Of a stretch of 64,000 nucleotides of DNA, positions 1 to 64,000 are shown one piece after another. The translations under genes and the position numbers were made by a program. Within the stretch, counting starts at the first letter, position 1. Each line of letters begins with the position of its first letter. Source of the DNA: Amphiscolops sp. MND2022 (Eukaryota); contig OZ076409.1 of the NCBI GenBank assembly GCA_964187785.1, positions 30,692,001 to 30,756,000 of the forward strand. The letters are read 5' to 3'. The notes below the pieces were generated by a model that did not search any database, had not been told where the DNA came from, and worked only from the letters and a program-made list of their open reading frames with translations.

Positions 1-2
1 AC

Positions 3-2468
3 TTAATATTAGCCGATTATGGTGATGATCAATTTACACTTCGTATTCAAGATAAAGGCAATGTTGTTAAATATACTCCTCTTGACTCCTTTTCATTTCA
101 ATCTGTTTCCTCATTCTTAAACAAATACAAAAAACCAGTCAAAAACAAAGTTAAAACTCTCCTTCAACAAAACCCTCTTTTAAACGAAACTGATTTATAT
201 GACACAGACGATCCTGTTCTTAAACGAATTCCTCAGCAATCTTCACAAACATCTCATGAACTTCACACTCTTTTTACAGAAGTACAACATCACAATTTCA
301 ACGATATTACCTTGTCACACGATATTTTAACCAACTTTATAAACTCCCCTCCTATTATTAACCATACTTTACACAGTAACGCTATAACACCAACTTCCCC
401 AAAAACCATCAATACTCAATCTTTGCCATTTTTTGACCCTTCCTTCTTTGCCCACCGTAAGGCATTTGATAATTTTTTCCTTCCTTCTGACACCTTATTA
501 ACATTACCCATTTTACTTCAAGCTCAAAAGGATGATCCTGTTCTTTCTACAGTATATACATGGTTAAAACAAAAACAGAAACCTCACTCCTTGACCCCAA
601 TTATTAAAGCAAATTCCTTTTTATATACATATTATAAACAATTCCAACACCTATATATAGACCCAACCTCTCACCTCATTCAATATTATACTCCCAATTC
701 TCGAATTTTTGAAGAAATTTTTATTAAAACCCAACCCTCTATTAACCAGACACGTATATGTTTACCATTTAAACTTTTCTACGCCGCATTCAGTAAAACA
801 CATTCTCATGGCCACTCCGGTGAAAAACTTTCTATTAAAACTTTTAACCAATTCTATTTTATTCCCCATCTACCTTTATGGTTTTCAATCTTTATCCATG
901 ACTGTATTGACTGCCAGACAAATAAGCATTTTCCAATTAAACCACAAAATATTTCTCCTCCCCTTCCTTTTTATGAAAACGCTACTCACTTCAATTACCG
1001 GATTTCTATGGACACCAAAGGTCCTATTTCCCCATCTTCTCAAAACAACTCCTATATTTTTGTTATTATTGATGCATTTAGTCACTTCGTTGTTACTAAC
1101 CCAGCTCCTAACATTAATTCAAAATACGCAATTCAAACTCTTCTCCATCACTGGATCACAAAATTTGGCCCCCCTCAATATCTTGTCACAGATCGAGGTA
1201 CCGAATATATCAATCAAGACATGGCTCATTTTTGTTCTCTCTTTCACATTAACCATTCACCTCGAACTCCCTATTCACCATGGACCAATGGTTTGGTCGA
1301 AGTCCAAAATAGAAATCTTGGAACTCACCTCCGAATATTTTTACAAAATCCTCCTACTAACTGGTCATTTCAAACCCAAATGTATGCATATGCTCATAAT
1401 ACAACACCTCTCTCTCAACTTAAACTTTCTCCATATCAAATCGTTTTTCACACCCATCCTCGCATACCTCTTACCTTTTCCCTTAATTTACCTCGAGAGG
1501 CTCAAAAACAATGTATTGCAACTTATTGTGAATCTCTTCCTCCTCATTCACATTATAGTACCCAAAACCTTAACCCATTTTTTCATTCCCTTCTTGACAA
1601 ACCCATCTCATCGTGGCTTTTAGCAGCTGAAACCGCAATGTTAGAAATATATTCAACTGTTCATCGTCATATAAATCACAAACTCAATTCTCAAAGTTCT
1701 ACATTTGAAACTACCCATTTGAAACAACTACCTCTTAATACCTTCGTTATACATACAAACTTTAAACCAGTTACGTTTTCAAACAAACTTAAACCTCTTC
1801 GAATTGGCCCATATAAAATCCTTAAACATCTTTCTGAAGTAACATATGAGCTTCTTTCACAAGATGGCTCTACATTTCAAACTCATCGAAATCATATTTT
1901 GCCATACTACCCTAAAGAACCCATAATTTTCCCATACATTAAACATTATCATTCCACCCCTTCTCTTATCAACAATCCTGATACTGATCCTTACCAAGAC
2001 ACCCTTTCTCAATTCTCTTCTTTAGATTTACAAAATAACTCTGACTCTTCTCAAACCCCTCCTCCTTCTGTATCCACAAATCTTAACAGCTCCCCCCCTT
2101 CCATTCCTAACTACCAAAACCTTTCACATTCCTCTTCTTTACAAGATCATTTCGACCATATTCCTTCCTCTACTACTATACCTTTACAATCTACTTCTTC
2201 TTCAGATAATCTCGATAATACAATAGACTCTCACGATTCAGATTTTGAAATGCTTCCAAATCCTCTTTATTATTCACACCCCTCACCTAACTCTTTCCCT
2301 CAGTTCTTTCCTCGTATTGCCGATTCTCCCAACACTTCTTCATCTACTTTACCTGAACCCCCCAACGAACCCATTTACCAACGAGCCCCCCATTCCCCAT
2401 ACAATTTACGTTCACTCCCTCCTCGCCATTATAATTCTTCTAAACCGACCATTAGCTTCCCTCCATGA
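3..2468 (+). CDS. pol: Pol polyprotein C-terminus: Gypsy-type integrase with Ser/Pro-rich tail (5'-partial)
   Basis: Frame is open from base 3 (LILADYGDDQFTLRIQDKGNVVKYTPLDSF...). HHCC zinc motif (HSHGHSG...CIDCQ), DDE core (ISMDTKGP / LVTDRGTEY / NGLVEVQNR) and GPY/F module (KLKPLRIGPYKILKHLSEVTYEL). Confidence 0.95.
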   Translation, partial: LILADYGDDQFTLRIQDKGNVVKYTPLDSFSFQSVSSFLNKYKKPVKNKVKTLLQQNPLLNETDLYDTDDPVLKRIPQQSSQTSHELHTLFTEVQHHNFNDITLSHDILTNFINSPPIINHTLHSNAITPTSPKTINTQSLPFFDPSFFAHRKAFDNFFLPSDTLLTLPILLQAQKDDPVLSTVYTWLKQKQKPHSLTPIIKANSFLYTYYKQFQHLYIDPTSHLIQYYTPNSRIFEEIFIKTQPSINQTRICLPFKLFYAAFSKTHSHGHSGEKLSIKTFNQFYFIPHLPLWFSIFIHDCIDCQTNKHFPIKPQNISPPLPFYENATHFNYRISMDTKGPISPSSQNNSYIFVIIDAFSHFVVTNPAPNINSKYAIQTLLHHWITKFGPPQYLVTDRGTEYINQDMAHFCSLFHINHSPRTPYSPWTNGLVEVQNRNLGTHLRIFLQNPPTNWSFQTQMYAYAHNTTPLSQLKLSPYQIVFHTHPRIPLTFSLNLPREAQKQCIATYCESLPPHSHYSTQNLNPFFHSLLDKPISSWLLAAETAMLEIYSTVHRHINHKLNSQSSTFETTHLKQLPLNTFVIHTNFKPVTFSNKLKPLRIGPYKILKHLSEVTYELLSQDGSTFQTHRNHILPYYPKEPIIFPYIKHYHSTPSLINNPDTDPYQDTLSQFSSLDLQNNSDSSQTPPPSVSTNLNSSPPSIPNYQNLSHSSSLQDHFDHIPSSTTIPLQSTSSSDNLDNTIDSHDSDFEMLPNPLYYSHPSPNSFPQFFPRIADSPNTSSSTLPEPPNEPIYQRAPHSPYNLRSLPPRHYNSSKPTISFPP

Positions 2469-2789
2469 TTAATATTCATTTTTTAATTGGATTTTCTCTC
2501 TCCCATTGTTCTCTGTCTAGACCTTTTCAAGCAGACATGTGACAATTTATTTAACCGCTTCCTTCAGTTCCATCTTCTCATTATGTCTCTAAGACACAAA
2601 CTGAACGGTTGCTTTCATCGAGACTGTTGTTCTCATCAAGACTTGTTGTCATATCGAAAACATTAACACTGAAACCATTAACATACCAAACTAAATTTTC
2701 AATACCTTTTCCTTCAACCCATTCTTCATTTTATTTAATTCTCACCCTAATATCTTCTAACCCCTTCCTTCTCCTTAATAATATACTAA

Positions 2790-4151
2790 CTCTTTCCTCT
2801 TGTTTCCATCCTGGATCTCACTGTTTTTTTATCTGACTCCTCCTCTAAAACTTCTTCTACCGTTTCAACTGATATTATACCTTCTTCACAAACTTCTGGA
2901 TCAACTCAGCAACCTCCTTTAAATCCTATCCCAATAACCCCTTCTCTAGATACCACCCCTGTTAATACTCCATCCCATACTCCTCTCCCTACCTCTGTTC
3001 CTCAACAAACTCAAACTTCTTTAACTCTTCCACTTTCTGATACAGAATTCCCTTTCGACATAACCCCTAATCAATCTCCACCTTCCTCTTCCTTTCATAT
3101 TCCTGACCCGAGTGACATTAACCCTACTCTTCTTCGAAATATTAATAACCCTACTCTTCCTCGATTAAAACTTATTCCTACTTCTATAAAAACTTTTCGC
3201 CGTCGCTCCCAATTAGATACCACTCTTTCTATCCCTCCACCTTGTTCTCACACCTCTACTAAGTCTTCTATACCTCCTTCTAAACCTCTTAAAATCCCCG
3301 TACTAGAATCTCTTGACTCACTTAAGAAAAAATCAGACTTAAGTGAAATTGACTCTACCACTTCTTCTCTTCTTTACCCACGTCTTCCCCCTTCTAATTC
3401 TGCTTCCAAATATACAACTTCTTCCTTGGATAATCTTCTTGACACCTCATCTGAGTCTACTATTAGCCATCCTCTCCGCCGTAGATACAATCTCCGTAAT
3501 AACCGTCGTCCTTCTCCTTCCCTTGCAAGCACAAACTCTTCTCTTTTACGTCACCACGCTCAATCCCTTTCTTCAGACTCCCTTTCAAACGCAGAAAACG
3601 CTCCTACTTCTGGCATTGACACTGCCTTTTCTCAACGTTCCTCTATTTCTTCTTATAATCATACTGGTCATCTTTTCTCTCGCCCAACTTCTCAAAATTC
3701 CACTCTTCTTTCATCTGACTCTCATTTACTTAACATTGATCTTACCTCTGATCAATATTCTACTCCTCCTACACCTAATCGTGTCGATTATCCTCTAATT
3801 GTAAATAATACACTTGTTAACAGTCCTCGCCAAGATCCTCGTTTTCTTTATCTTGCCACTCACAAACTTAATTCAAATCGTCATATTTCAGACACCCGTC
3901 GTCGTAAAGAATTTCTTCGTCTAGAAGAACCCAATCTCGAACTTAAATTTGAAATCAACGTCAAATTCCATAACTTAAGTCCCCATCCCATTCCGTCTCA
4001 TACAACAGTAAATTTTAAATCTCTTCCCCATCCATTTATTGCCACCAATCTTAGTCTTTTTGTTAGTGATAGCCCTCCATTTCGTCTTTTACACGGTTCC
4101 ATAACCTTCCTTAATACCCTCACCTTTTTAAAATACACTGCCCAATTTTAA
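2790..4151 (+). CDS. Accessory ORF2: 453-codon stop-free frame with no ATG; Ser/Pro/Thr-rich N-part and more globular C-terminal part
   Basis: Manual translation upstream of the track ORF 3426..4151 shows no stop back to TAA at 2787-2789 and no in-frame ATG. Confidence 0.6.
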   Translation, partial: LFPLVSILDLTVFLSDSSSKTSSTVSTDIIPSSQTSGSTQQPPLNPIPITPSLDTTPVNTPSHTPLPTSVPQQTQTSLTLPLSDTEFPFDITPNQSPPSSSFHIPDPSDINPTLLRNINNPTLPRLKLIPTSIKTFRRRSQLDTTLSIPPPCSHTSTKSSIPPSKPLKIPVLESLDSLKKKSDLSEIDSTTSSLLYPRLPPSNSASKYTTSSLDNLLDTSSESTISHPLRRRYNLRNNRRPSPSLASTNSSLLRHHAQSLSSDSLSNAENAPTSGIDTAFSQRSSISSYNHTGHLFSRPTSQNSTLLSSDSHLLNIDLTSDQYSTPPTPNRVDYPLIVNNTLVNSPRQDPRFLYLATHKLNSNRHISDTRRRKEFLRLEEPNLELKFEINVKFHNLSPHPIPSHTTVNFKSLPHPFIATNLSLFVSDSPPFRLLHGSITFLNTLTFLKYTAQF

Positions 4152-4239
4152 ACCTTAATACCCTCACCTTTTTAAAATACACTGCCCAATTTTAAACCTT
4201 AATACCCTCACCTTTTTAAACTACACTGCCCAATTTTAA
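4109..4239 (+). repeat. Three near-perfect tandem copies of a 44-bp unit spanning the ORF2 stop and ending just before the env ATG
   Basis: Unit CCTTAATACCCTCACCTTTTTAAAATACACTGCCCAATTTTAAA starts at 4109, 4153 and 4197. Confidence 0.97.
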
Positions 4240-4247
4240 TACAAAAC

Positions 4248-7019
4248 ATGTCTTTCCTTTTTTTTATCTCACTCTTCTATTTTCTTCCTTCTCTCTTCTT
4301 GGTATTTTCTCAAAATTTTCCATCTTCCGATCATATTGATCCTAATGATCCCCATATTTCAGATCTCTTAGTCTCTCACTATGATTGTTCTAAACAACAT
4401 AATTTAAGACAATTTAGTCTTACTCGCGTCCAACCATGCATTCAAGCCCCCTCTGCTTTTGAAACAACCCGTGCAATTGTCAATGTTTTTGTCCGTGCTA
4501 AGGCTAAGCGTCTTCGCGCTTGGACCTGTGAAGCATACGTCAAACGAGAAAAGTTTGTCTGTGCCCAATCTGATTACAAATATCGTCGCCATGACCGTAC
4601 AGATTATCATCAAAACACCATGGAACGTCCTCGTACTCTTGACCCAACCGAATGCAAACACGCTATTCGTCATTTAAACGGAACTCATAATCCTCAACTC
4701 GATGCTTTTAATTATTCAAATTCCTTTACCTTTTTCGATGATATTCAAAAACAACGCCTTTTAGAAACAAAACAACCTCCTTTTCGTATTAATAAACTCA
4801 ATACTTACCATTATGGTGCTTTTGCTTGGATCACCAATTCCCAATTAGTATTAAACTCAACTCTGAAAGAAAAAGCTGTTTGTTGGGACCGCTATGAGTA
4901 TATTATTGAAAAAGATAGTTGGTCTCTCATTGTAAAAGAAATTGAAATTACTTATGATGACAAAGAAAATAAATTGATATACCATGGTCATACTTTACCT
5001 TGCCTCCACGATGATGGTTTTTGTAAACCAACAATATTAACACCTTTCACCATTGTTTGGTTTCCTGAAGATCTCTGTTTAATTTTCTCTATTCATTCCT
5101 TTATTGGCCGCATGTCTAAACTCAATAACCGCTATTGGCTTGAAACTGAACATTTTTTTAACAATAATTCCTCTCCTGATTCAACTAATTCTCCTTACCA
5201 TGATACTAAATCTCAAACACGTCTTTCTCGTTTTGAAATTTTTCCTGAAAACAAAATGTTTTGTAATAAACCTACTCCTTTACATCTTACACAATATCCC
5301 GACTTGTTTGTAACCTACACCGAAGGTTTTAATATGCAAACTGGTAAACATAATCCACTCCAACTTCCACAAGATGAACAATACAACCAACTAACCACCA
5401 GGTTAATATCTGGAAAATTAATTCACACTAAAGATAAACTTCTTTTCCCTGCTCTCAATTCTTCAAATAATTTCGCTACCATTGATTATGAAGCCCATAT
5501 TAACACTAAACTTGACTACTCAATAAATCATGTTTTTAAAAGCATGTCCGTTGCTGAACTTAACACCCTCCACACCATCTGTGAAGTCGAACGTACTCAA
5601 CTTTTAACCATACTCGCTATGTCTGTTAAAAATCCACAACTTGCTGGTTTTCTCTTAACCCAAAACCGTAGCAATTTTTTATATGTTGAAGGCTCCACTG
5701 CCTGGTTATATGACTGTCCTCATCATCTTTCACCTCTCTATATTGCTGAACAATGTTATGACAAAATTCCTGTTAATTATCTTGACACTGTCATGTATGT
5801 TGATCCTATTACACGTCAAACTTTTGAATATGCAAACCAAATACCTTGTGAAAACAATCCTCAAAATGTTATTTCTCTTGACCCAGACACCGACCAATAT
5901 TACGTTCTCACTCCTCAACCTATTAAAAAAGACCCTCCTCTTCTTTTTGAACCAACTCAAATTCAAACCGCTATTAGCCCGAATACCTTTACTGCTCAAG
6001 ATGCTGGTATATATTCACAAAAAGAATTAAAACACTTTTGGGATCGCGTTTTATTTACTAAACATTCTGATAATACTCTCCAACTTCTTGGAAAAGCTAT
6101 CAGTTATGAATTTATGAATCAACAGTCTGACAATTCCTTTCCTAATAATCCTTATCGATCACTCCGCATTGGTCTTCATGACTACATGTTAAACCTAACT
6201 CCATTTTTCTCTCCTGATTGGTTTACAAATGCTTTTATCAAACTCTTTGGCTATCCATGTTATATTTTAACCCAATGTGGGATATATTTTTCTACTGCTC
6301 TCTTTCTACAATTCGCTTTCAATGCACTCTTTAGTATTTACCGCTCGTTCACTGTTCGAAATCTTCTTAAAAAACAAATTTCTGTAATTACTGCCTTAGG
6401 CTTTGGTTTCTTTGGTACTATTACCAAAACTATGATGACTGCTATGATCAAATCCACTCATTCATCATCAGATTCCGACGATTCTGATTCTCCTCATTCC
6501 CCTCTACAAAAAAATAATATTACATCTTCCACTTCTAAACCTCGTCCCCCTAAATATCATAAAAATATTAAAACAAAACTTCTTAGTTTAAAATATAAAA
6601 CTCCCATGAATAGAACCTCACCAAACTCTTCACCTATTAAACCCCCCTCTTCCTCGGTATTTCATGCTCCTTCCATTAATCCTACAAACCCTCCTAACAT
6701 CGAAAATTGTTCACCCCCACCTCCAAATTATAATTCTCATCTTTCATCCCATAATAACCTTTCTTCCCCCCACTCCCAATTACCTTCATTATCTTCACCT
6801 CCACATTTCCATAATTCGTCTCTTCCTGATGACACTAATTGTGACAATTCTTCCACTGATTCCCCCATTTATAATCCCTGGCAATCTACAAAATTATATC
6901 CTCCTACTCCACCACCAATTAAAACTAATGACATTCCGTTAACTTCTGTCAATAATATTTTTGACCCGCCTGACAGCCCTGTCAAAGTATATTCTTCTTG
7001 TCGCTTCCCTCCAGAATAA
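4248..7019 (+). CDS. env: Env-like membrane glycoprotein, probable class III viral fusogen (chuvirus-G / herpes gB-like)
   Basis: N-terminal signal peptide (MSFLFFISLFYFLPSLFLVFS); Cys-rich ectodomain with HYDC..FSL..VQPC, CEVERTQLL..NPQLAGFLL..EGSTAWLYDC, CYDKIPVNY..YVDPITR..QIPC and AGIYSQKEL motifs; N-glycosylation sequons; C-proximal hydrophobic segments; Pro/Ser-rich tail. Confidence 0.82.
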   Translation: MSFLFFISLFYFLPSLFLVFSQNFPSSDHIDPNDPHISDLLVSHYDCSKQHNLRQFSLTRVQPCIQAPSAFETTRAIVNVFVRAKAKRLRAWTCEAYVKREKFVCAQSDYKYRRHDRTDYHQNTMERPRTLDPTECKHAIRHLNGTHNPQLDAFNYSNSFTFFDDIQKQRLLETKQPPFRINKLNTYHYGAFAWITNSQLVLNSTLKEKAVCWDRYEYIIEKDSWSLIVKEIEITYDDKENKLIYHGHTLPCLHDDGFCKPTILTPFTIVWFPEDLCLIFSIHSFIGRMSKLNNRYWLETEHFFNNNSSPDSTNSPYHDTKSQTRLSRFEIFPENKMFCNKPTPLHLTQYPDLFVTYTEGFNMQTGKHNPLQLPQDEQYNQLTTRLISGKLIHTKDKLLFPALNSSNNFATIDYEAHINTKLDYSINHVFKSMSVAELNTLHTICEVERTQLLTILAMSVKNPQLAGFLLTQNRSNFLYVEGSTAWLYDCPHHLSPLYIAEQCYDKIPVNYLDTVMYVDPITRQTFEYANQIPCENNPQNVISLDPDTDQYYVLTPQPIKKDPPLLFEPTQIQTAISPNTFTAQDAGIYSQKELKHFWDRVLFTKHSDNTLQLLGKAISYEFMNQQSDNSFPNNPYRSLRIGLHDYMLNLTPFFSPDWFTNAFIKLFGYPCYILTQCGIYFSTALFLQFAFNALFSIYRSFTVRNLLKKQISVITALGFGFFGTITKTMMTAMIKSTHSSSDSDDSDSPHSPLQKNNITSSTSKPRPPKYHKNIKTKLLSLKYKTPMNRTSPNSSPIKPPSSSVFHAPSINPTNPPNIENCSPPPPNYNSHLSSHNNLSSPHSQLPSLSSPPHFHNSSLPDDTNCDNSSTDSPIYNPWQSTKLYPPTPPPIKTNDIPLTSVNNIFDPPDSPVKVYSSCRFPPE

Positions 7020-7397
7020 TAATATCTTTACTTTTGACTTTATTAATCCTCCTTCTGAATTTTAAACACCCAAACCCAATTTAATATCTTCACCTTTAAT
7101 TTTATTAATTCACATTCTGAATTTTAAACACCTTAATCCAATTCAATTTTCATACTAATATTATACCTCTTATACATAATAATTATAGTCCTTTTAAAAC
7201 TTTCACCTTTCCATTTCTCATAATTCTTGCTTTCAATCTGGTCATCTCTTCTCATCTCTCCAACATATTTCTCAAATTTTCTGTAACACCTAATCTTCAT
7301 CTAACAATCATATAATCTTTCCTACAAAAACGCACATTTGTATAACTTTCTCTAAACGCACATCTGTATAAACTATTCTAAACTTTTTTCTACAAAA

Positions 7398-8885
7398 ATG
7401 GCCACTATCAATCCCGAAGAAGAACTCCTTTCCAGCATTGCATCTTTGTCACCCCCTCTTTCTCTTAAATCTGGTACTCTTGATCTTCCTCTCACCAATG
7501 ATCCTCTTCCTCCTAATTCTACCAATACTCCAGAACCTACTATAAATACTAACCCCACCACTTCTCAATCCACTAAATCTTCTTCCAATGTTCTTAAATC
7601 TCGTCATTCCCCCACTCCGCCCCCAAATAATATCCATATTACTATTGACAATCATCACATCCCTACAAAAAAGAAATATAATATTCTTGAAGACCCTGTC
7701 TTCATTGATTCCGGTATTTTGCCCCCAACTCTTCATCCTTTAAAAAATCCTTCTCAATCTAATACAATGACAGACGAATTCCTCCGTAACCACCCAAATT
7801 TTAAAGCCAACCTTCCTTCCTTGTATATGACACCCACTACCTATAAATTTCGCTTTCCTCAAGACCGTAGTTTTGACCATTATGTTGCTTATGCTTCCAA
7901 AAATTTACCTCAACTCGCCTATTGGCAAACCAATCGTGTCCGCTTCTTTCAATTCCAATTCAACCTTCTTAAACCCACTCAACATGATTTAAACACCAAT
8001 CCCAATGATATCACCACAACTCCTTCTGTTAAAAAACTTCATCATCAAACCTATCAACTTTTTCTTGAACATAAACATCCTCAAAATTTTATTTTCCAAA
8101 ACCATAAATTTACTTCTCCATTTTCATTTCATTCTCATTATTCACTCAATCACCTCTTCACTATTGGAACAATTCGTAACTATGACCCTGTGAAACAATA
8201 CTTTGTCCTTTCTTCTTATCATGATCCCACCAGACCATTATTTGTACCTCAAGAAGCACTCAATGTAAACGATGATTTCCTCCTTCCTACACATATTCCA
8301 AACGCTGTTCAAAACTTTTTCCCCAAAATGACAAAACTCGTAGAAACACCTCTTGACGATCATTCTCGTTCACTTTATACTGCCCTAGTTCATAAACACT
8401 ATTCTCTTGCACAACTCAATTTTGTTATTGCGAAACTTTCTTCCTTCATTCTTAAAAAACAATACAAATATTTTTCATTAAACATCTCAGATGAAATCCT
8501 TCAAACTCTTCCTAAACACACTTCCCCTAATACTACATCTGAACCGCCTCACATTTCAACAATTCCTCCTCAATCTAATTCATACGTTCTTCAAACTGCT
8601 AATCCAAATGTTTGCATCAACTCTTTCTCTTGTCCCACCGACAAATTTGTCTCAGAAATACTTTCTCTTCTTCGCCCACATGTTGAAATTGCCCCAAACA
8701 CAGATCCTTTCATTATTTTAAATCACATTTTTGACACCTATCGTACTCTTCAATCTCTCCTTCAACTACACTCCACTGATATTCAAAATTTAACGATTTC
8801 TACAATCCATGTTAATGATTTTCTTAAAAAACTTGTTCTATTGGAAACTCCTCCTCAATTCACTTCCTCTTCAACCTCTCTCTAA
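7398..8885 (+). CDS. Accessory ORF4, 495 aa, unknown function
   Basis: Intact ORF with AAAATGG start context and the element's composition. Degenerate homologous copies occur on the minus strand at ~15880-16330 and ~18600-19950 (e.g. QDRSFDH vs QDRNYDH; HKHYSLAQLNF vs KHHSITQLHF). Confidence 0.8.
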   Translation: MATINPEEELLSSIASLSPPLSLKSGTLDLPLTNDPLPPNSTNTPEPTINTNPTTSQSTKSSSNVLKSRHSPTPPPNNIHITIDNHHIPTKKKYNILEDPVFIDSGILPPTLHPLKNPSQSNTMTDEFLRNHPNFKANLPSLYMTPTTYKFRFPQDRSFDHYVAYASKNLPQLAYWQTNRVRFFQFQFNLLKPTQHDLNTNPNDITTTPSVKKLHHQTYQLFLEHKHPQNFIFQNHKFTSPFSFHSHYSLNHLFTIGTIRNYDPVKQYFVLSSYHDPTRPLFVPQEALNVNDDFLLPTHIPNAVQNFFPKMTKLVETPLDDHSRSLYTALVHKHYSLAQLNFVIAKLSSFILKKQYKYFSLNISDEILQTLPKHTSPNTTSEPPHISTIPPQSNSYVLQTANPNVCINSFSCPTDKFVSEILSLLRPHVEIAPNTDPFIILNHIFDTYRTLQSLLQLHSTDIQNLTISTIHVNDFLKKLVLLETPPQFTSSSTSL

Positions 8886-9534
8886 TTGGTAAACACTTTC
8901 TTTCTTTTAATTCCTTTTAACAATACATTTTTTCTCAGAACAATGAATATCGATAACAAATTTCCATGGATCACATATTATCTTCTATGACCTCTTATTC
9001 GATTAACATACATATTACATCTTTCACTCTTTATTAGCATATATCATCTTTCCCCTCATTTTTGACACTCCTCTCTATTGTCTTTTCTATTTCTTAATCA
9101 ATTGCTTTGACACTTCCACTTGTTCTTCTGATAAATGTTGACATTACATCTCATGTCTTCTAATATTATTAACTCTTAAAGATCTTTTTCAAATTGCTCT
9201 CTCACTTGCTTTTCAAACTTTTTGCAGACCACTCCTATTTTAAATATCACACTCAAAACTCTTTAACTGACTATTTCCATTTTCATCTTTGCCAAATTTA
9301 TACTATCAGGTATAAAATATTTCAATTAACTTTCTCACTTTTCAAACATACTCTAACTTTTAACCACAAATTCTACAAATATTTTGCATCTTTCTTTTTG
9401 CATTTCACACTCTATCATATCTTTCTCTTTTCGATCCAATAAATTCACCACAACACTTTCTCTCTATTAAATTACTTCACATAATATAAAAAATATCATC
9501 ATAATTCAACATTTTCATTTATTTTGTTTTAGTA

Positions 9535-10431
9535 ATGACATCTTCTTCTTCTGTGCCAACGGCATACCCTCTTCTAAATCAACTCCTTGATTCTGCATTG
9601 CCATTTCCTGTCTCCTCCACATCTTCTACATTCATTCTTCCAACAGTCGCCACTACTTCTTCATCATCTACATCTTCCACTGCTGTTTCTGTCATACCCT
9701 CTGTTGCATCTGTAACATCTGCTCTTTCATCTTCACCCATCTCTTCTTCCGCCAATACTTCTGGTGTAAATACTACAGCCTCCACTACATCTGTCCCACC
9801 TCCAATTCCAGTGCTTTCTTCTACTTCGTCTCCAACTCCATCAATCAAACTTCCTTTCTTCATTCATCCTCAAGATGCTGTCGCCACTTCCCCACATTTT
9901 CAACAACATTCGGCCGTCCGCCAATTGACTCGTGATCTCCAGCAGAAGAAGCCAAAACATCCAAAACGTCTCCACTTGCCATCAGAAATAATTCAACAAC
10001 CTGTCCGCCGTCTGGTCCACAGTGTGGTCTATAAACAGAAATTGAACAAGTATATAACTGCTCTCCAAGTATATGAAAAACATCTTGATGAACTTATTGC
10101 ACAAACTACATTCGAATTAGATAAACTTAATAATACACCCCCTCTTTCCAAATTACGAAAATTTAAAACAACTCAACCTATGCAATTATCCCCTCTTTCT
10201 ATTCAAATACCTCCAAATAATTGCTGTAATTACTATAATTGTTTCCCTTCTAATCCCCTCCATTGTTCCCATGTTCCCCTCGCATATACTATGCATTCCC
10301 ATTTTCCTCCCCCCCCACCTTCCCCAGCATTAATTCCAATTCGTGTTGAACCAATAACCCCCACTTTTCAACCTCCCTCCCCTTTGAATGATTTAGACCC
10401 GCTAGTAACGTCACTGAACGATGTTGATTAA
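9535..10431 (+). CDS. Accessory ORF5, 298 aa, unknown: Ser/Thr-rich N-terminus, central coiled-coil-like helix, Cys/His cluster, Pro-rich C-terminus
   Basis: Intact ORF; KQKLNKYITALQVYEKHLDELIAQTTFELDKL helix; NNCCNYYNCFPSNPLHCSH cluster; preceded by a pyrimidine tract and AG at 9531-9532. Confidence 0.7.
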   Translation: MTSSSSVPTAYPLLNQLLDSALPFPVSSTSSTFILPTVATTSSSSTSSTAVSVIPSVASVTSALSSSPISSSANTSGVNTTASTTSVPPPIPVLSSTSSPTPSIKLPFFIHPQDAVATSPHFQQHSAVRQLTRDLQQKKPKHPKRLHLPSEIIQQPVRRLVHSVVYKQKLNKYITALQVYEKHLDELIAQTTFELDKLNNTPPLSKLRKFKTTQPMQLSPLSIQIPPNNCCNYYNCFPSNPLHCSHVPLAYTMHSHFPPPPPSPALIPIRVEPITPTFQPPSPLNDLDPLVTSLNDVD

Positions 10432-11754
10432 TATTGTTTGTTCAAACATTTTTGGAAATTTATATCACATTTTTGATCATATTTACTTTGTTTGGTTTTG
10501 AACATTTCTTTTAACCCCCCCCCACATTTTCTTGACCCTCCTCACGCCTATTATTGTGCTATGCTTTTCATTTTTCCTCAACTTTTAAAAATTTCCACCC
10601 TCAAATTCCCACTTTTTATTTCAAACATTTGCTTATAACTTCGGTTCTAAAAACTCAATTCCCCAAAATTCTATCTTAGCATGTTGTTTTGATCTCCCCT
10701 CCTCTCCAATACTGGAGCTATCCCTTATTTTCACTTTTCTTCACTATGAAACAAACTTTTTAATCATAATTTACAACCATTTTTCTCTTCCTTCCCGACA
10801 AATTTTGAATTCACTCCTCTTTTATTTCAATTCTACCCAATTTCTTCTTTTCATCCTACTCCTACTAGATCATATATTAAAACCAACTTACCTCAATATC
10901 TCACTTTTCTTCGCTTTCTTTTAGACACAAAAATTCGCGTGATCAAACCATTTCTTTCTTTTTTTTTAATTGACAACATACCTGCCACGTGATATAATTT
11001 TGATCAACTCTTGACTCATATGGCTTTGTTTTCGCTCAAATTTGCTTCTGCCACCGCCTTTTGCTTTGAAGATTCTAACGTCTCATTTTAGTTGATTAAA
11101 AAGGCCATAAGATCAACGCTTAGTTATCAAACAACTAAGAATCTTCGGCTTCTTGATAGAATTTTCTTGTCAATTAGGCTGTCAAAATCTTGCCATATCT
11201 CAATTTTTTCTCTCACCCTCCTTGTCAATCAAACTTTTACCGCCTCGGAAGATACTAAAATCCTGAAAATACTAACTCATTCGTCCTGTACAAAAATTTC
11301 ATGAAACCTGAAATCATTTTACTGAATTCGTACCCAATATAAAAAAGTCGCATTTCAAATAATGAATTGAAAATAACTAAAAGTTAAAACTTTATTCTCT
11401 GTTCTTCCATGTATTTAGAACCTCGGAACTAAGGTTAATAACCTACTCTCTTGAAGACACGTTTCTTTATACTAAAAAACTTAAAATTCCCCGCCCGTAA
11501 CTCACGAAAGGAAAGATATGAAGACAACTCAAACATGAAAAATTTTCACAAATATATGAAGACAACGTTTAAAACAAAAACTCTTAATGCAAGATTATTA
11601 AAATTCCTCCTTTTTCTCTTTCTCTAAACATATTAAACCAAACTTCAACCTTTTAATAAAACTCCAAATTTCAAGATATCTTTTAACAAAAACTCCAAAA
11701 TTTTTCTTCCTTTCCTTTTTTTTCAAAACCCGGTCGGATGATATACCAGATATA

Positions 11755-12061
11755 TGTTGTGTAGTGCTGTATCGTCCCCCCAACTCCCCTTATGTCTAGA
11801 CTTCTAGACTTCATAATAAATGTACTCCGTCTCATCAATGTATCTGATTAATATTCTAGATGTAAACTTAATGTACCCACTTAATATTCTGTACAATGCA
11901 CTTTGATTTAGACACAACTAAAATTCATTCTTCACCAACCAGTTGTCTTCCCTTAAGACCTAATATCTGCAGCTCTGTTAGTGTCTCTTAAAGTACTAAG
12001 ATCATTTGGACACTCTATCTCAGTAACACCGATCTATAAGAACAAAACAAGTACTTTAACA
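11755..12061 (+). repeat. Candidate 3' LTR
   Basis: TGTT...AACA inverted termini, AATAAA at 11815-11820, and a composition switch into an unrelated ORF right after 12061. No canonical polypurine tract, and the 5' LTR is not in the window. Confidence 0.5.
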
Positions 12062-14332
12062 TGCTAACAGAAATGTGCAGTGCTCGCAATATCGAATTCT
12101 ACCTATGCGCACCTAACTTACGCGTCAGAAAAGACGACTTACGTCCTGCTGCAGTCACAGTACACGCATACTTGGCAGTAATATCACGCCTATTGCAACC
12201 AGTGGAACGTGGTGGCAATGCCCAACTAACGTGGGACGATGCAATATACTTTGACCATGGAATGCGTCTAGGCACGCTAACCTTCGATGAAACAGGAAAA
12301 GAAAGCGAATTGGCTCAGAAGCAACCATTGCAGAACGCGAGAATATGCGCAGATACAACTGGCTGGTCCGCGAAGCACATCCCAACACCATCAAGGCAGA
12401 CCTTGCATCAGTCTGGGATCAACTAAATCGATGGCCACTTAACCGTGAGGTCGAAAGGACCATTCCCCAAATTCAATTTGCCGACAACACGGAAATTATC
12501 AAAATGCCACTGGGCATCAGGCACATTGTAGCCCATGAAGCCGTGACCCTTAGCAATTTGGTCCAAGCCAAAAAGGCCACTTACGTGGATTGGTATAACG
12601 ATCGCCTAGCCACAGTCACTCTAGAAATGACCGCACGACCCTATCTGTCTCTTTCCATGCCTTGCTGACAAGTTTTGGATTGGGTTGGCATATGGACGTC
12701 ATTGCAGACGAGTTCAACCTGACCGATGGACAGCTGCAAAGACTCACTGAAACACTTAAAGAAACTTCGGAAAACGAGGTGTTAGCCCTTGCGCTAGCCC
12801 TTGAGCCTACCAAGTTTGTAGCTGGACCACTAGCCATCGTTGTAGACTTGGTCACATCCGGTGGAGTGCTAGAATTCTACACCTACCTAGTCTTGGCTCA
12901 AGGAAAACTAACCAGCTTGCTTGGGTGTGGAGAACTTCTCTTCACACAAAACGGGCACAACTACACCGAGCATTTGTTCCGAATGAGAGCTTCCGTGCAA
13001 CACTGGCTCTAGTCCACACTGATCTATGCATCAGGATTATTTGTAGGAGTGGACCAAGCTCAACCCCTACACGATCCGGACGCGCAGTTGCCTCCTGAAA
13101 ACCCGGGATTTCCGATGTCGCAACAATTGGCTGACCTGACGCTAGCCGAAGTAGAACTCTTAGCTCCCGTTTTAATTCCAATCTTTGGAGCTCTTGGACT
13201 ACTACGCTATCCAACCAAGCCAGCAGTATCCCTAGCAGTGCATGTTGCAACGGTATCCATCTTCACGTACCTTCAAGGAAGCCCGCCTATGAGCTATGCA
13301 CAAATGATACGAGAAACCTACAGTGGCGAAGTACCTCGAGCGTATACCACTGCCAAGACTGAGCAACAAGTGGAGGAAAATATGATGGGTGTTATCCGTG
13401 CCCGCTCGCGCAAAGCCGCCGTCTTACCAAGGGAATACGGTCCCATCAACTGGTACAATGCTCCTGTTGACTTGAATGGACAACCATTCCGGTTTCCTTG
13501 GTCGTCAGACTTTATCAAGAAAGTGATAAATCCCTGCTTGCAGCTCAGCCCGCATGACCGTTTGGACTACAAGTTCAAATTCATCCAGGTACCCAATCGC
13601 TACTGGAAAGAGCCAGTAGGCTACCCTCGCGCACGCCCAATTGGACGCGGGAAGGTATTGCTGGATCACCAATTACGGCACTTAGACGTGGCCAATGTAC
13701 CCAAATGGGATCACGTGGCGGCACTAGTGCGTGATCGCAACCTGTCACGTAGAATATCCCCCTTACAATACGAGCCTGTCTGGCGCCCACAAGGACGCAT
13801 GACCATGTCCGGAGATATGCCGTTGTCGTTATTGGACATAGTGAACCAGGTGTTAGGCGCAGAAATGCGCGCCGAATGGGACGAGGAATGCCTCAATCTG
13901 GAAGTCAGCAAATTCGACGTATGGAAACAAGCTTGCGCACTCTGGAAGCAAGCTGGCTGGGTATCAAAACGTGTAGCCCTGGCAGCCAACCACCGTGCTG
14001 AACAAGAACGTGTTGCTCGATATGCGCCACAACAGTCACAGCCTCCTACTATGGCGATGTCATTGGAGCAACCATTGACGGTAGAAGCTTATACCAATGA
14101 AGCGGAAGTTACAGCAGATAACACAGCTATGCCTGTAACTCCTAGTCCTTCTGGAGAACATGCAGCAGAGCTGACCCCAAATGTAGAGCTGGCAGAACCC
14201 ATCGGTGATCTCACTATTGATACCGATGTCGAAACTGTTGTGCCTTCGCCAGTCCGACGAGCGTCAGTAAGCGATGCGTCACCTCCAAGAGAAATCTCTC
14301 CTCGAAGCAGGAACAAATCTGCTATTCAATGA
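12062..14332 (+). pseudogene. Decayed large unknown ORF (about 750 codons), 5'-truncated by the LTR element; probably an accessory gene of another mobile element
   Basis: Track ORFs 12061-12426, 12345-12668, 12662-13012 and 13049-14332 chain via two frameshifts and one in-frame TAG (13010-13012). Confidence 0.65.
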
Positions 14333-54593: not shown

Positions 54594-55429
54594 GGTGAAA
54601 TAACCAACTGATAACTCGATCATATTAGATATAGAATGGAATCCATCGCTGACTAGATAAATCCACGTAGTTTGCTTAAATTACTCGTGCATGAGCAACA
54701 CATCACATCTCACATGTTGTTATCCTGTGAACACTTGTAGTGTAAGACATATAGTTACATCGTCACGCAATAAAAACATGTACAGCTTTACGTGTGTATA
54801 GTTCACGCACACATACACGCACACGGATCGCTTTCCTTCATTCAAAGATAGAATGGTCACTCAAAATAAAATTCAGAATGCTCGATTTATTTATAAATTT
54901 GCTGTTTGAGGGAATTTATCTCCATTACTTTATTTATCATCATTATATCCCTGATGTCACAAGCACCTCGCTCATTCGGAACTAAGAATTTTTGTTGCAA
55001 ACTTTTTCAATTCTCATCTACGAGGTTTTTTTCTGAAATTGCTCATCTATGAGGTATTTTTCTGGAATTCCTATTCATCTATGAAGTTCGCATTAGTTTG
55101 GGAGATTTTTTGAAAATCTTTTATTTCATTTGGAGTCTTTTTCAAGTTTCTCATTCGGTTAAGCGTTTCGCATTCAAACTGCTACGAGTTCGGAAGTTTT
55201 TTGAATACTTAAATTTTGAGAGCTTTTTCAGTTTCTCAAATATTTTATTGGATCACGCTTCTATAAAATCAATGCTAACAAGATATTCTGAAGTAGTCTT
55301 AGTCTGGTATACTAGTAGTTCGCAGAAATTCGGAGATTGAAATTCTGCTCAACGTTAGCTTTTCTTTTATTGTTTACAGCTTATTATCATGACAATCAAC
55401 ACAGTCTTCCTCTTCACTCGTCTGGACTT

Positions 55430-55641
55430 CGCAAATTATTTGCACTTTTTGCGAATAACTGCTAAATTATTTGCACTTTTTGCAAATAACTGCTAGATTA
55501 TTTGCACTTTTTGCAAATAACTGCTAAATTATTTGCACTTTTTGCAAATAACTGCTAAATTATTTACACTTTTTGCAAATAACTGCTAAATTATTTACAC
55601 TTTTTGCAAATAACTGCTAAATTATTTACACTTTTTGCAAA
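55430..55641 (+). repeat. 31-bp minisatellite, about 6.5 copies
   Basis: Unit AATTATTT(G/A)CACTTTTTGCAAATAACTGCTA. Confidence 0.95.
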
Positions 55642-55824
55642 TATCTGTCCTAACCCAGAGAAACTCATGCGACCTCAAACTTTGGAAAGGCTTGAATTTC
55701 ACACCTGAAGTAGAGAGTTTAACTATTTTCGTGAAATGTTAGAACATCAAGTTCTATTTTGTTTAACTCTAAGTGATTGATTTGACGCTCGACGACTGTC
55801 CCATCAAGGTGGTTCGTTTTCTCT

Positions 55825-56019: not shown

Positions 56020-56403
56020 TAAGAATATTTGAAGAAACGTTCCCTGACCACGAATATTTGAGACCTCACCATCATCAAGGTTAGCCTCCTTTCACAAGCA
56101 AACTTAAGTAAATCATTCTGTTTTTTTTTCAACTCTTGCATACCTTATTCATTATCCAACTAAGGTTTATTTTGCTGACTTTGTGCATTTTAAGATTTGT
56201 CAAAACCTACGAAAACCAAAACAAATGAAATTAGCAGGAAGAACAAGTGATTCCAAGGTTATGAACATTTAGAAATAAACCTGGAATAGTGTTCCAAAAG
56301 CAACTCAAACTTTTGTTTCATTGAGTATCGTAAAATTAATTTTGTCTGCTTGCTTCTTTGAGATTCTTTGTTTTATTTTAGATAACTTACCATTTTTCAA
56401 GTA

Positions 56404-56955
56404 ATGGGCCCGAAACTTAAGTGCGCTGAGTACAGTTTTATCCAAAGTCAGGTATGGGATCTGTCTGGAGAAGAAATTAAAAATATGATGACGCTACCGC
56501 CATCCAAAATTCCAGTGACTACAACCGAGCCACAACCTGAACTAAAAACTGAGCTTTTGAAATGTGTACCTTTGCAGAATTTGAAGAACATCGATGGTAA
56601 AAACCAACAAAGGTTTAGATATTTAGCATGTGTAGCTGTTGCGGATGGGAAAGGATCTGTTGGAATTGGTGAGAAGATTGCTGGAACTAGAAAGTTGGCT
56701 GAGTTAAAAGCCAGAGACGCTGCTTTGCTGAACTACAGTTTTATTGGAACAAAATTAACAAAAACAATTGATGCAAAATGCCTAGAAATCTCGCTGCAAC
56801 TCTCTCCATCTCCGATAGGATCCGGTTGTACCGGTTCACCTCTCGCAAGAAAAATTATGGAAATAATTGGTATAAACGATTGTTGTATCACGGGCGGCGA
56901 TAATAGGTTATCCACTGTGAGAGCACTTGCTAAAGCTTTGAGAAAAATAAATTAA
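56404..56955 (+). CDS. Highly divergent ribosomal protein uS5 (eukaryotic RPS2)-like protein, 183 aa, intronless ORF
   Basis: LKTELLKCVPLQ..RFRYLACVAVADGKGSVGIGEK..IDAKC..LQLSPSPIGSGCTGSPLARKIMEIIGINDC parallels RPS2 [66 protein letters not shown]. Confidence 0.8.
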   Translation: MGPKLKCAEYSFIQSQVWDLSGEEIKNMMTLPPSKIPVTTTEPQPELKTELLKCVPLQNLKNIDGKNQQRFRYLACVAVADGKGSVGIGEKIAGTRKLAELKARDAALLNYSFIGTKLTKTIDAKCLEISLQLSPSPIGSGCTGSPLARKIMEIIGINDCCITGGDNRLSTVRALAKALRKIN

Positions 56956-57269: not shown

Positions 57270-59935
57270 TTTCTATTCTACGGTTATGGGGCCGCAATAA
57301 GGCCTGTGGGGGTGGCATTAAAGCCCAGTATTTTGCTTTTGCATCCGAGTATTTTCCCATTTTCGCTATGGGGCAGTATTTTCCAATTTTCGGCTATGGG
57401 GTCGCATTAAGGCCTGCGGGGGCGGCATAAAAGCCCAGTATTTTGCTTTTATAGCCACGCTTTTTCCATTCTACAGCTACGGGGCCGCAAGAAGGCCTGC
57501 GGGGGCGTCATTAAAGCCTGGTATTTTGCATTTGCAGCCGAGTATTTTCCAATTTTCGGCTATGGGGTCGCATTAAGGCCTGCGGGGGCGGCATTAAAGC
57601 CCAGTATTTTGCTTTTATAGCCACGCTTTTTCCATTCTACAGCTACGGGGCCGCAATAAAGCCTGCGGGGGCAGCATCAAAGCCCAGTATTTTGCGTTTT
57701 CTACCAAGCTTCTCCCATTCTACGGTTATGGGGCCGCAGTAAGGCCTGCGGGGAGGCATTAAAGCCCAGTATTTTGCTTTTATAGCCAAGCATTTTCCAT
57801 TCTACGGTTATGGGGCTGCAATAAGGCCTCCTGGGGCGGCATTAAAGCCCAGTATTTTGCTTTTATAGCCAAGCATTTACCATTCTACGGTTATGGGGCC
57901 GCAATAAGCCTCCTGGGGCGGCATAAAAGCCCAGTATTTTGCTTTTATAGCCAAGTATTTTCCATTCTACGGCTGTGAGGCCGCAGTAAGGCCTCCTGGG
58001 GCGGCATTAAAGCCCAGTATTTCGCTTTTATAGCCACGTATTTTCCATTCTACAGCTGTGGGGCCGCAGTAAGGCCTGCGGGGGTGGCAATAAAGCCTAG
58101 TATTTTGCTTTTTTACCCAAGTTTTTTCCATTCTACGGCTGTGGGGCCGCAGTAAGGCCTGCGGGGGTGGCAATAAAGCCTAATATTTTGCTTTTTTTAC
58201 CCAAGTTTTTTCCATTCTACGGCTGTGGGGCCGCAGTAAGGCCTGCGGGGGTGGCAATAAAGCCTAATATTTTGCTTTTTTACCCAAGTTTTTTCCATTT
58301 TACGGCTGCGGGGCCGCGATTAGGCCTGCGGGGACGGTAATAAAGCCTAGTATTTTGCTTTTTTACCCAGGTTTTTTTCCATTTTACGCTTATGGGGGCG
58401 CAATTAGGTCTGCGGGGTGGCAATAAAGCCTAATATTTTGCTTTTTTACCCAAGTTTTTTCCATTTTACGGCTGCGGGGCCGCAGTAAGGCCTGAGGGGG
58501 TGGCAATAAAGCCTAGTATTTTGCTTTTTTACCCAAGTTTTTTCCATTTTACGGCTGCGGGGCCGCGATTAGGCCTGCGGGGACGGCAATAAAGCCTAGT
58601 ATTTTGCTTTTTTACCCAGGTTTTTTCCATTTTACGGCTGCGGGGCCGCAGTAAGGCCTGTGGGGGTGGCAATAAAGCCTAATATTTTGCTTTTTTACCC
58701 AAGTTTTTTCCATTTTACGGCTGTGGGGCCGCAGTAAGGCCTGTGGGGGTGGCAATAAAGCCTAGTATTTTGCTTTTTTACCCAAGTTTTTTCCATTTTA
58801 CGGCTGCGGGGCCATGATTAGGCCTGCGGGGAGGTATTAAAGCCCAGTATTTTGCTTTTATAGCCAAGCATTTTCCATTCTACGGTTATTGGGCTGCAAT
58901 AAGGCCTCCTGGGGCGGCATTAAAGCCCAGTATTTTGCTTATATAGCCAAGCATTTACCATTCTACGGTTATGGGGCCGCAATAAGCCTCCTGGGGCGGC
59001 ATAAAAGCCCAGTATTTTGCTTTTATAGCCAAGTATTTTCCATTCTACGGCTGTGAGGCCGCAGTAAGGCCTCCTGGGGCGGCATTAAAGCCCAGTATTT
59101 CGCTTTTATAGCCACGTATTTTCCATTCTACAGCTGTAGGGCCGCAGTAAGGCCTGCGGGGGTGGCAATAAAGCCTAGTATTTTGCTTTTTTACCCAAGT
59201 TTTTTCCATTCTACGGCTGTGGGGCCGCAGTAAGGCCTGCGGAGGTGGCAATAAAGCCTAATATTTTGCTTTTTTACCCAAGTTTTTTCCATTCTACGGC
59301 TGTGGGGCCGCAGTAAGGCCTTCGGGGGTGGCAATAAAGCCTAATATTTTGCTTTTTTACCCAAGTTTTTTCCATTTTACGGCTGCGGGGCCGCGATTAG
59401 GCCTGCGGGGACGTTAATAAAGCCTAGTATTTTGTTTTTTTTTACCCAGGTTTTTTCCATTTTACGCTTATGGGGGCGCAATTAGGTCTGCGGGGTGGCA
59501 ATAAAGCCTAATATTTTGCTTTTTTACCCAAGTTTTTTCCATTTTACGGCTGCGGGGCCGCAGTAAGGCCTGTGGGGGTGGCAATAAAGCCTAGTATTTT
59601 GCTTTTTTACCCAAGTTTTTTCCATTTTACGGCTGCGGGGCCGCGATTAGGCCTGCGGGGACGGCAATAAAGCCTAGTATTTTGCTTTTTTACCCAGATT
59701 TTTTCCATTTTACGGCTGCGGGGCCGCAGTAAGGCCTGTGGGGGTGGCAATAAAGCCTAATATTTTGCTTTTTTACCCAAGTTTTTTCCATTTTACGGCT
59801 GTGGGGCCGCAGTAAGGCCTGTGGGGGTGGCAATAAAGCCTAGTATTTTGCTTTTTTACCCAAGTTTTTTCCATTTTACGGCTGCGGGGCCGTGATTAGG
59901 CCTGCGGGGGCTGCAATAAAGCCTAGTATTTTGTT
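57270..59935. repeat. Tandem satellite, ~83-bp unit, roughly 30 copies, with a 1078-bp higher-order duplication
   Basis: Unit TTTTCCATTTTACGGCTGCGGGGCCGCAGTAAGGCCTGCGGGGGTGGCAATAAAGCCTAGTATTTTGCTTTTTTACCCAAG; identical track ORFs at 57967-58173 and 59045-59251. Confidence 0.97.
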
Positions 59936-60181
59936 TTACAATCCATTTATGAACTTGTTGCTCAACTGGAAAAATTTATTCTACGGCTTTTGGAGAATCT
60001 CCTATGCTATTAGACAACGCGTCGGCCAATAAAATGAGAGCAAAACAACACTGAATTCATAGTTACTGAAGCACTTGTAACTTTTTGAAAGTTTACTCAA
60101 CAGGTACTTGAGAACAATACAAAGTAAAACAATAACTTTAGCACAAAGACTAGCTAGTAGCATATGAAGTAATATGAAGTC

Positions 60182-63100: not shown

Positions 63101-64000
63101 AGAACGTTCAAGCTGCATGAAAATTGGGGTAGGGTTACCATGTTCAATACCAACAAAGCAGAAACCGCTAGGTTTGTGTAGTTCACTGATGCTTGTTGAT
63201 TCATTTTCTTTTTGGCAGCCGGCAAGTGGCTGAAGGATTGATTCGAGATCAAAGTAGATAACCACCGGGGCAAACCATCTCGCACCCAAGTTTTTAAATT
63301 TCAACCGGTTTTTTTCTGGCGGAGGCATTTTCACAACTGCGGGCTCGTGATGCAGGCAACTAACTTGGTGACGTTTGTAAACCGTTTCATCAGTGCAGAT
63401 GTGAAAACAGTTTCTGTAGAGTACTCTCTGAAACAACGATGTTGTTCCTTTGATCAAGTTGACGAGTCTCAAAAGGTCCAGTATCAGAACGTAGTGATAC
63501 TCCTGTCCATCATCCACTAACAATAAGTCAACATTGAAAGTGTTGTCTTCACGGGAAACTCTCAGTGGAACTAGTTCGTTTTCAGTATAACGGAAAATCT
63601 TAACGTTGCACTTGTTCAGTTTTTCAAATCGTAACATTTGTCCAAAGCCCATGGGCATTTCATAGTCACCCACTGCTTGATGGGCTAATTGATTTCGTGA
63701 CGAGTAGGTTTCAGGGCTCGTTCGTCTCCCAATTGAATCCCGGCTAGCCACATAGAGTAGAGGTCCATGTTTCAGGTGCCACGCAGCTGTAAAGCAGTAC
63801 AAAAAGCAATTGTGATCTTGTCGGTTGCGAATGTTGAGCAGTAAATGCGGTGCCTCCAGTTCTGGTGGAGTAGGAAGGTAGGAGGATCCCCGAATTGCAT
63901 TGAAGGTGGCAAATTTAATGTCTAGCTCAGTTATTTTATCCAGTATCCACCCACTTCCGGAAGCAGTGAACGTAAACAAAGTGTTGATCATTTTATCCAC
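60182..64000 (-). pseudogene. polB: Polinton/Maverick (adintovirus-like) protein-primed family B DNA polymerase, 5'-partial, with a single in-frame TGA at 61252-61250
   Basis: Exonuclease motifs FDLES, HNSSNYDL, FIDS; endonuclease VII-like insert CWIC..KVIDHCHYSGKFLGFAHPECN; polymerase motifs LDANNLYG, KLMNNSCYGKT, YSDTDS. The two track ORFs are in frame (HLN*FVLYSDTDS). Confidence 0.93.

Follow-up and report, generated by a model that had tools for sequence, protein, structure and literature searches.

Ty3/gypsy elements with a class III envelope gene (env) of the glycoprotein B (gB) type have been described across animals as "ancient errantiviruses" (Chary and Hayashi, PMC13524379). According to the parts of that paper available to us (a scope that applies to all papers cited here), such env-bearing elements are ancient and widespread, and their route out of and into cells is left open. 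Here, we describe an element of this kind in a 64,000-nucleotide stretch of DNA from Amphiscolops sp. MND2022 (contig OZ076409.1; G000:C1:30692001-30756000 in a genome of 1.07 Gb), which we call the window. Positions 1-12058 of the window are the 3′ part of one Ty3/gypsy-type long terminal repeat (LTR) element. Since a class III env is already known on Ty3/gypsy elements, the env is no surprise; the conserved set of accessory genes is. We regard the reality, young age and conservation of the element and its gene set as nearly certain. As an explanation of the whole, a young multicopy Ty3/gypsy-type LTR retrotransposon with the layout of a complex enveloped virus appears probable.

The element has in common with those of PMC13524379 a Ty3/gypsy pol, the gag-pol-env order, a class III env related to those of chuviruses and BEL/Pao elements, and many near-identical copies; intact gag and pol and an env with a signal peptide and a membrane anchor, likewise traits of that group, are present. 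The elements described there have three open reading frames (ORFs), and the first filter of that survey was set to a pol-env distance of at most 1,000 nt and 10 kb in total; the gap here is 1,779 nt and is occupied by an ORF that we call ORF2. The terms "matrix", "late domain", "non-AUG" and "accessory" do not occur in the available text of PMC13524379. Likewise, the complement of the primer-binding site (PBS), GTCGCACCA, has no occurrence in its table of 1,512 elements, as far as that table was available. The element is thus set apart by description and by the PBS table, not by sequence.

Other known systems resemble it in part. Anakin-type elements carry the same glycoprotein family, PF24664 (cited in PMC13524379 and PMC12440569), but they belong to BEL/Pao, whereas the pol studied here is nearest to Ty3 in its reverse transcriptase (RT) and shows a GPY/F-like motif in its integrase. 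Burro of planarians, Ogre and the bdelloid ORF3 elements are likewise large, with extra ORFs between pol and env or past env; however, the env of Burro lies within a polyprotein, and the bdelloid ORF3 types are env, GDSL and DEDDy (PMC6431247, PMC5408684). In the available parts of these two papers, no element is described in which a late-domain ORF without AUG precedes a gB-type env that is followed by two ORFs. Foamy viruses and foamy-like fish endogenous retroviruses have accessory ORFs between env and the 3′ LTR, as the present element does (PMC12125541, PMC6431247). Troyka LTR retrotransposons are likewise a deep-branching animal lineage with a single Gag-Pol frame. Membership in Troyka was ruled out, since that group has CG...CG ends, a 3-bp target-site duplication (TSD), no env and no GPF/Y motif, all of which differ here (PMC12440569). 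In the open-licence literature (Repbase was outside the search), we found no description of the present gene set or of a CUG-initiated ORF paired with env in an LTR element.

Together with the DNA upstream of the window (locus L011), the full element measures 18,911 bp, computed from coordinates. Its gene order is Gag-Pol, ORF2, env, ORF4, ORF5 and 3′ LTR, and its features are as follows (window positions unless marked L011).
L011:648-967, plus strand: 5′ LTR; it and the PBS precede window base 1 by about 6.5-6.9 kb.
1-2468 (frame 3-2468), plus strand: 3′ part of Gag-Pol, with the linker between RNase H (RH) and integrase (IN), the integrase (Pfam rve, E = 2e-15) and an S/P-rich tail.
2811-4151 (stop-to-stop 2790-4151, 453 aa), plus strand: ORF2, 446 codons from an in-frame CTG.
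4109-4240, plus strand: tandem repeat of three 44-nt copies at the ORF2/env junction.
4248-7019 (frame 4203-7019, 938 aa), plus strand: env, 923 aa from the ATG at 4248; Pfam PF24664, E = 1.7e-27.
7398-8885 (frame 7356-8885, 509 aa), plus strand: ORF4, 495 aa from the ATG at 7398, soluble, of no known family.
9535-10431 (frame 9505-10431, 308 aa), plus strand: ORF5, 298 aa from the ATG at 9535, with an S/T-rich N-terminal part and a basic helical middle.
11719-11738, plus strand: sequence before the 3′ LTR, TTTTTCAAAACCCGGTCGGA, not purine-rich.
11739-12058, plus strand: 3′ LTR, 320 bp, with TG...TA termini.
12059-12062, no strand: TSD of 4 bp, ACAT, which flanks the element on both sides.

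The original prediction, made from the letters of the window, had named a Gypsy integrase followed by four long intact ORFs of one orientation and one composition (a class III fusogen-like env and three accessory ORFs), with an LTR-like unit at their end. The integrase and all four frames were found as described, and composition is even over 1-12 kb (GC 33-40%, GC skew -0.33 to -0.66) and shifts at 12 kb. One correction concerns the ORF at 2.8-4.15 kb, which contains no in-frame ATG in 2790-4151 and is therefore not an ordinary intact ORF. The LTR-like unit proved to be the true 3′ LTR, which lies beyond all four ORFs and not before env. Its end had been put at 12061, 3 bases into the TSD. The upstream DNA yielded the 5′ LTR, PBS, Gag and RT. 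The two LTRs do not differ over their 320 bp, which, together with the TSD, agrees with the recent insertion suggested earlier; the insertion site is a decayed, unrelated Gypsy element.

To the same effect, a genome search with the LTR, in which the best 40 of 763 candidates were scored, returned 37 hits that make 19 pairs spaced 18.6-19.1 kb apart and 3 unpaired ones. One LTR is common to two tandem copies (G000:C2:91713533-91750648). In the 11 of the 19 pairs whose termini were read, there were no LTR mismatches, the ends were TG...TA, and a 4-bp TSD was present every time. The downstream ORFs also remain linked in these full-length copies: among the matches listed (the best 40 of 4,835 candidates for env and the best 102 of 7,542 for ORF4), env lies in 17 of the 19 pairs and ORF4 in 18, and the remaining pair does carry ORF4, with a frameshift. 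ORF5 was found in all five downstream stretches of this lineage (family A), frameshifted once.

Three more multicopy families (B, C and D), whose env is 50-55% identical to that of A, are present in the same genome; the env homologues assigned to them matched at 52-54%. All copies read around env (2 of B, 2 of C and 3 of D) carry pol and env together with homologues of ORF2 and ORF4. ORF4 is followed by an ORF of 120-160 aa in 6 of the 7 copies, and the seventh, from D, is rearranged past a shortened ORF4. The order pol-ORF2-env-ORF4-small ORF-LTR is thus kept in B, C and D. One copy each of B, C and D was seen to have paired LTRs, of about 415, 420 and 270 bp, respectively, with the same PBS core. 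Stops or frameshifts occur in the D copies and in one C copy. With at least dozens of copies each, the four families make up a sizeable part of the genome.

Accessory ORFs are real genes under purifying selection, with dN/dS of 0.03-0.19 in close comparisons. Pairwise Nei-Gojobori estimates were 0.08 for IN, 0.16 for ORF2, 0.05 for env, 0.03 for ORF4 and 0.15 for ORF5 between A and a 96% subfamily. Between B and C they were 0.07, 0.18, 0.08 and 0.15 for IN, ORF2, env and ORF4, respectively, and ORF5 was saturated, at 62% identity. Within the A lineage, ORF5 gave 0.15 and 0.19. Distant pairs ranged from 0.12 to 0.53 where estimable, with dS saturated or nearly so. Searches of Pfam and PDB sequences returned no match for ORF2, ORF4 or ORF5.

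ORF4 is conserved in all four families (34-43%) and has homologues outside the genome, namely P0203 (best genome match at most 50%) and P0339 (29 cluster members; best match 30-33%). ORF5 behaves differently. The ORF of A and that in the same slot of B show no detectable relation (E = 0.38), and the ORF of about 150 aa in this slot of B and C is not detectably homologous to that of A, which indicates that the slot has turned over. By analogy with complex retroviruses, ORF4 and ORF5 may most likely be regulators or host-defence antagonists made from separate RNAs, an assignment that we propose tentatively. A decamer resembling a splice acceptor, TTTGTTTTAG, lies before ORF5 in A (9523-9532), B and C and is not seen in L054 or D; in L036 and L042, it stands 87 nt ahead of ORF5.

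Gag-Pol is a single frame of 2,637 aa that begins at L011:2055, upstream of the window, and follows the order Gag, protease (PR), RT, RH and IN. It contains a CX2CX4HX4C (CCHC) knuckle, the protease motif LLDSG, the RT motif YIDD and RNase H; the integrase has HHCC, DDE and a GPY/F-like RIGPY, and its tail ends with a YNLR motif at 2400. Against solved structures (phmmer vs PDB), the RT scored 120 bits with Ty3, 83 with the next hit, 68 with foamy virus and 38-41 with proteins of the murine leukaemia virus type, and the integrase scores nearly tie (Ty3 51.5, prototype foamy virus (PFV) 48). In a quick RT-RH tree of 23 rows, which took in no named reference clades, families A-D and the outside proteins P0165, P0171 and P0173 form one long-branch clade with an SH-aLRT (approximate likelihood-ratio test) support of 100. 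The RTs of these outside proteins are 39-46% identical; gypsy proteins with a SCAN domain, at 29-34%, fall outside the clade of A-D, and the nearest named proteins are 29-33% identical. Of the traits of Metaviridae, the element shows two LTRs with a TSD, a tRNA PBS, the order Gag-PR-RT-RH-IN and an RT nearest to Ty3, and it lacks the polypurine tract.

The PBS directly follows the 5′ LTR and matches, over 11 nt, the 3′ end of a genomic tRNA-Met(CAT) plus CCA; we read this tRNA as the elongator type. A polypurine tract was not found before the 3′ LTR, where the 20 nt read TTTTTCAAAACCCGGTCGGA in all 11 copies, and this implies a non-canonical plus-strand primer. Families B, C and D have a similar A-run/CCGG motif ahead of their 3′ LTR. 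LTR termini are TG...TA in family A (11 of 11 copies) and TG...CA in B and C.

The env gene encodes a class III fusogen of the gB/chuvirus type. The Pfam family matched is Monjiviricetes_fusion (PF24664), in both halves, and the protein consists of an N-terminal hydrophobic signal, a class III fusogen ectodomain and a long P/S-rich tail. Twelve cysteines are unchanged in seven aligned sequences. The top Foldseek hits of the predicted structure were chu-/xinmo-/rhabdo-like G proteins and herpesvirus gB, in line with the original prediction; the monomer model has a mean confidence (pLDDT) of 40.5, and its alignment to gB is limited to residues ~37-345. A moderately hydrophobic membrane segment lies near aa 675-700; by hydropathy this anchor is weak in family A; in C and in P0117, a distant env relative (26% identical), it stands out clearly at the corresponding position. 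In all four families the tail carries PPxY, which in A takes the form of PPKY (6546) and PPNY (6720).

ORF2 has an S/P/T-rich N-terminal part, and about 130 aa at its C terminus form a conserved domain. A motif [LI]YPxL occurs at a homologous place in all four families (LYPRL at 3372 in A), with a shuffle expectation of 0.01-0.04 each. PSAP lies 9-10 residues past the CTG in B, C and D and is not present in A. In Gag-Pol, P[TS]AP is absent from A and B, and PPHY occurs near the Gag end in B and C. The motif types YPxL, PSAP and PPxY recruit ESCRT (endosomal sorting complexes required for transport) in budding viruses (PMC6874086, PMC8402826). YNLR occurs in ORF2 of all four families (at 3486 in A), and A, B and P0171 also have it in the integrase tail. 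It forms the core of the chromatin-binding peptide of PFV Gag, whose Tyr and Arg are required for nucleosome binding (PMC12125541). The element differs from foamy viruses in its Ty3-like RT and class III Env, and in having YNLR in ORF2 and the integrase tail instead of Gag. In our view, it is an even chance whether ORF2 acts as a stand-alone matrix-like protein or late-domain budding adaptor.

ORF2 probably starts at a CUG codon. It lacks Met in all eight aligned copies of the four families, against 4.2-7.2 expected per family, and homology across the families begins at CTG GAT, with A at -3 and G at +4 (tccATC CTG Gat in A). This CTG is retained at 10 of 10 A loci and in all of 20 additional copies from B, C and D, while only 1.0-3.5% of Leu codons are CTG. 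One B copy lacks the +4 G, one has gained a Met, and one D copy has CTT instead. Between the CTG and the env ATG, the 1,437 nt of A are free of ATG in all frames; 3 are present in B and 2 each in C and D, and these open ORFs of 1-17 codons. Codon shuffles gave an out-of-frame expectation of 6.15 against 0 in A (P = 0.002) and 7.3 against 2 in D (P = 0.01), with P = 0.06 in B and 0.09 in C, whose counts take in the env ATG. At pooled synonymous sites, NAT before G was found 9 times and NAC before G 23 times (p = 5e-4), the opposite of control ORFs. The number of 44-nt repeats differs among copies, and the CTG-to-env distance is 1348-1437 nt.

A conserved CUG in a strong context, with AUG depletion up to env, points to CUG initiation and leaky scanning to env. 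Such scanning through an AUG-less ORF with a non-AUG start was shown in rice tungro bacilliform virus, which likewise has a long upstream ORF with no internal AUGs, and where the majority of ribosomes reach the following ORF after scanning about 900 nt (PMC5902531). That virus is, however, a plant pararetrovirus that uses AUU on its pregenomic RNA (PMC5902531), whereas in the animal element CUG-ORF2/env scanning is proposed from sequence only. We consider it quite probable that ORF2 and env would be translated from a single subgenomic RNA, with CUG as the minority start and the remaining ribosomes scanning to the env AUG. No splice site or promoter word common to the families was found for an RNA carrying both.

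In the mechanism that we propose, few ribosomes would begin ORF2 at the CUG and the others would pass through the AUG-poor ORF2 to env. ORF2 would recruit ESCRT through YPxL/PSAP, assisted by PPxY of the Env tail, and Gag capsids would leave the cell in Env-bearing membrane and enter neighbouring (germ-line) cells. Through YNLR, ORF2 and the integrase tail may attach to nucleosomes in the manner of foamy virus Gag. Several points weigh against this scheme. Other S/P/T-rich parts are likewise ATG-poor (2-9 per kb), and the four families share kinship. Moreover, the predicted fold of the ORF2 C-terminal domain (two helices and a beta-sheet, pLDDT 62) had no structural match, and no matrix fold was found. 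Taken jointly, scanning from a CUG and a budding adaptor seem to us somewhat better than an even bet; the infectious nature suggested in the original prediction is putative.

Alternatively, the element may transpose within cells or by cell-cell fusion, with Env and the accessory proteins fusing neighbours or manipulating the host and no budded infectious particle being made. The data at hand are sequences, which give no direct sign of particles, and the transmission mechanism of most env-bearing elements is stated to be unknown in the available text of PMC13524379. In Drosophila, Env-independent cell-to-cell transfer via small membrane proteins is known (PMC11952523), and small hydrophobic leader ORFs exist in the present element as well. 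This reading does not account for three kinds of late-domain motif, the ESCRT-recruiting signals named above, being conserved at homologous positions of ORF2 and of the Env tail. We consider it unlikely, although worth keeping in mind.

Downstream ORFs of LTR elements are usually expressed by splicing, and in insect errantiviruses the AUG of env is supplied in this way by an upstream exon. ORF2 could similarly obtain an AUG from an upstream exon, the CTG being a mere conserved leucine and the env RNA being spliced separately. AG dinucleotides do occur inside and upstream of ORF2 in every family, but no acceptor is common to the families. In A there is no AG from the last in-frame stop (2787-2789) to 2909, though homology with B-D starts at 2811. 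Splicing also does not predict that out-of-frame ATGs are avoided at synonymous sites or that a rare CTG is retained. Hence, CUG initiation is preferred, and splicing is quite unlikely.

In the boldest form of the proposal, ORF2 and env would have been captured jointly as a matrix-glycoprotein (M-G) cassette from a negative-strand RNA virus. In mononegaviral genomes M precedes G, and ORF2 adjoins a Monjiviricetes-type glycoprotein on its 5′ side. Its late-domain motifs, N-terminal in position, and its place before the glycoprotein are traits of mononegaviral matrix proteins; its C-terminal domain is beta-rich. We nevertheless hold this origin to be improbable. Finally, the sense strand has just 8-9% G (L011:648-7500 and window 1-12058) and is C-rich, which results in long shadow frames (e.g. 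661-1623; up to 320 aa within pol), but the notion that the accessory ORFs are passengers of this G-poor, stop-poor composition is refuted by their dN/dS far under 1, by protein conservation across families with near-saturated synonymous sites and by ORF4 homologues beyond the genome, and is barely worth entertaining.

If the CUG-started adaptor exists, this lineage offers a concrete, testable mechanism of exit and entry, that is, a separate late-domain protein co-translated with env. The lineage also shows that a retrotransposon is able to keep a multi-gene layout like that of complex retroviruses over long evolutionary time. More speculatively, the clade could be a deep lineage of animal reverse-transcribing elements, found in more than one host, that turned into a complex enveloped virus outside Retroviridae, in which budding moved from Gag to a CUG-started matrix-like protein, bicistronic with a class III fusogen and joined by two accessory genes and small membrane ORFs; we find this conceivable but rather doubtful. 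Since such elements exceed the length and gap limits of the survey in PMC13524379 and are mis-called by AUG-based gene finders, more of them may be hidden.

The 5′ leader contains three small hydrophobic ORFs of 48, 37 and 78 aa (L011:1434-1580, 1590-1703 and 1819-2055). The first resembles ORFs of B and C (39 and 40 aa) and the second one of D (37 aa), and a further ORF of 78-79 aa is common to B and C. They resemble the small membrane ORFs of Drosophila MDG1 but are shorter and without the MG myristoylation start. Further short tandem duplications lie in intergenic gaps (62 nt twice at 7020-7143) and in the leader (repeats of about 60 nt, L011 ~1045-1300).

Elsewhere in the window, two decayed relatives with 65-71% DNA identity to the element lie on the minus strand at 17.1-19.8 kb and 29.0-31.8 kb. 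Both appear to have the same internal deletion, which joins the RH-IN linker to mid-env and suggests a non-autonomous form that was once amplified; a fragment of ORF4 also occurs in the former, misplaced relative to the gene order. At 57270-59996 lies a satellite with an 83-bp unit in about 30 copies, and at 55402-55680 a tandem repeat of 31 bp. On the minus strand, we take a 189-aa frame at 56386-56955 to resemble a ribosomal protein S5-type domain, and long frames at 60182-64000 presumably resemble a Polinton-type family B DNA polymerase.

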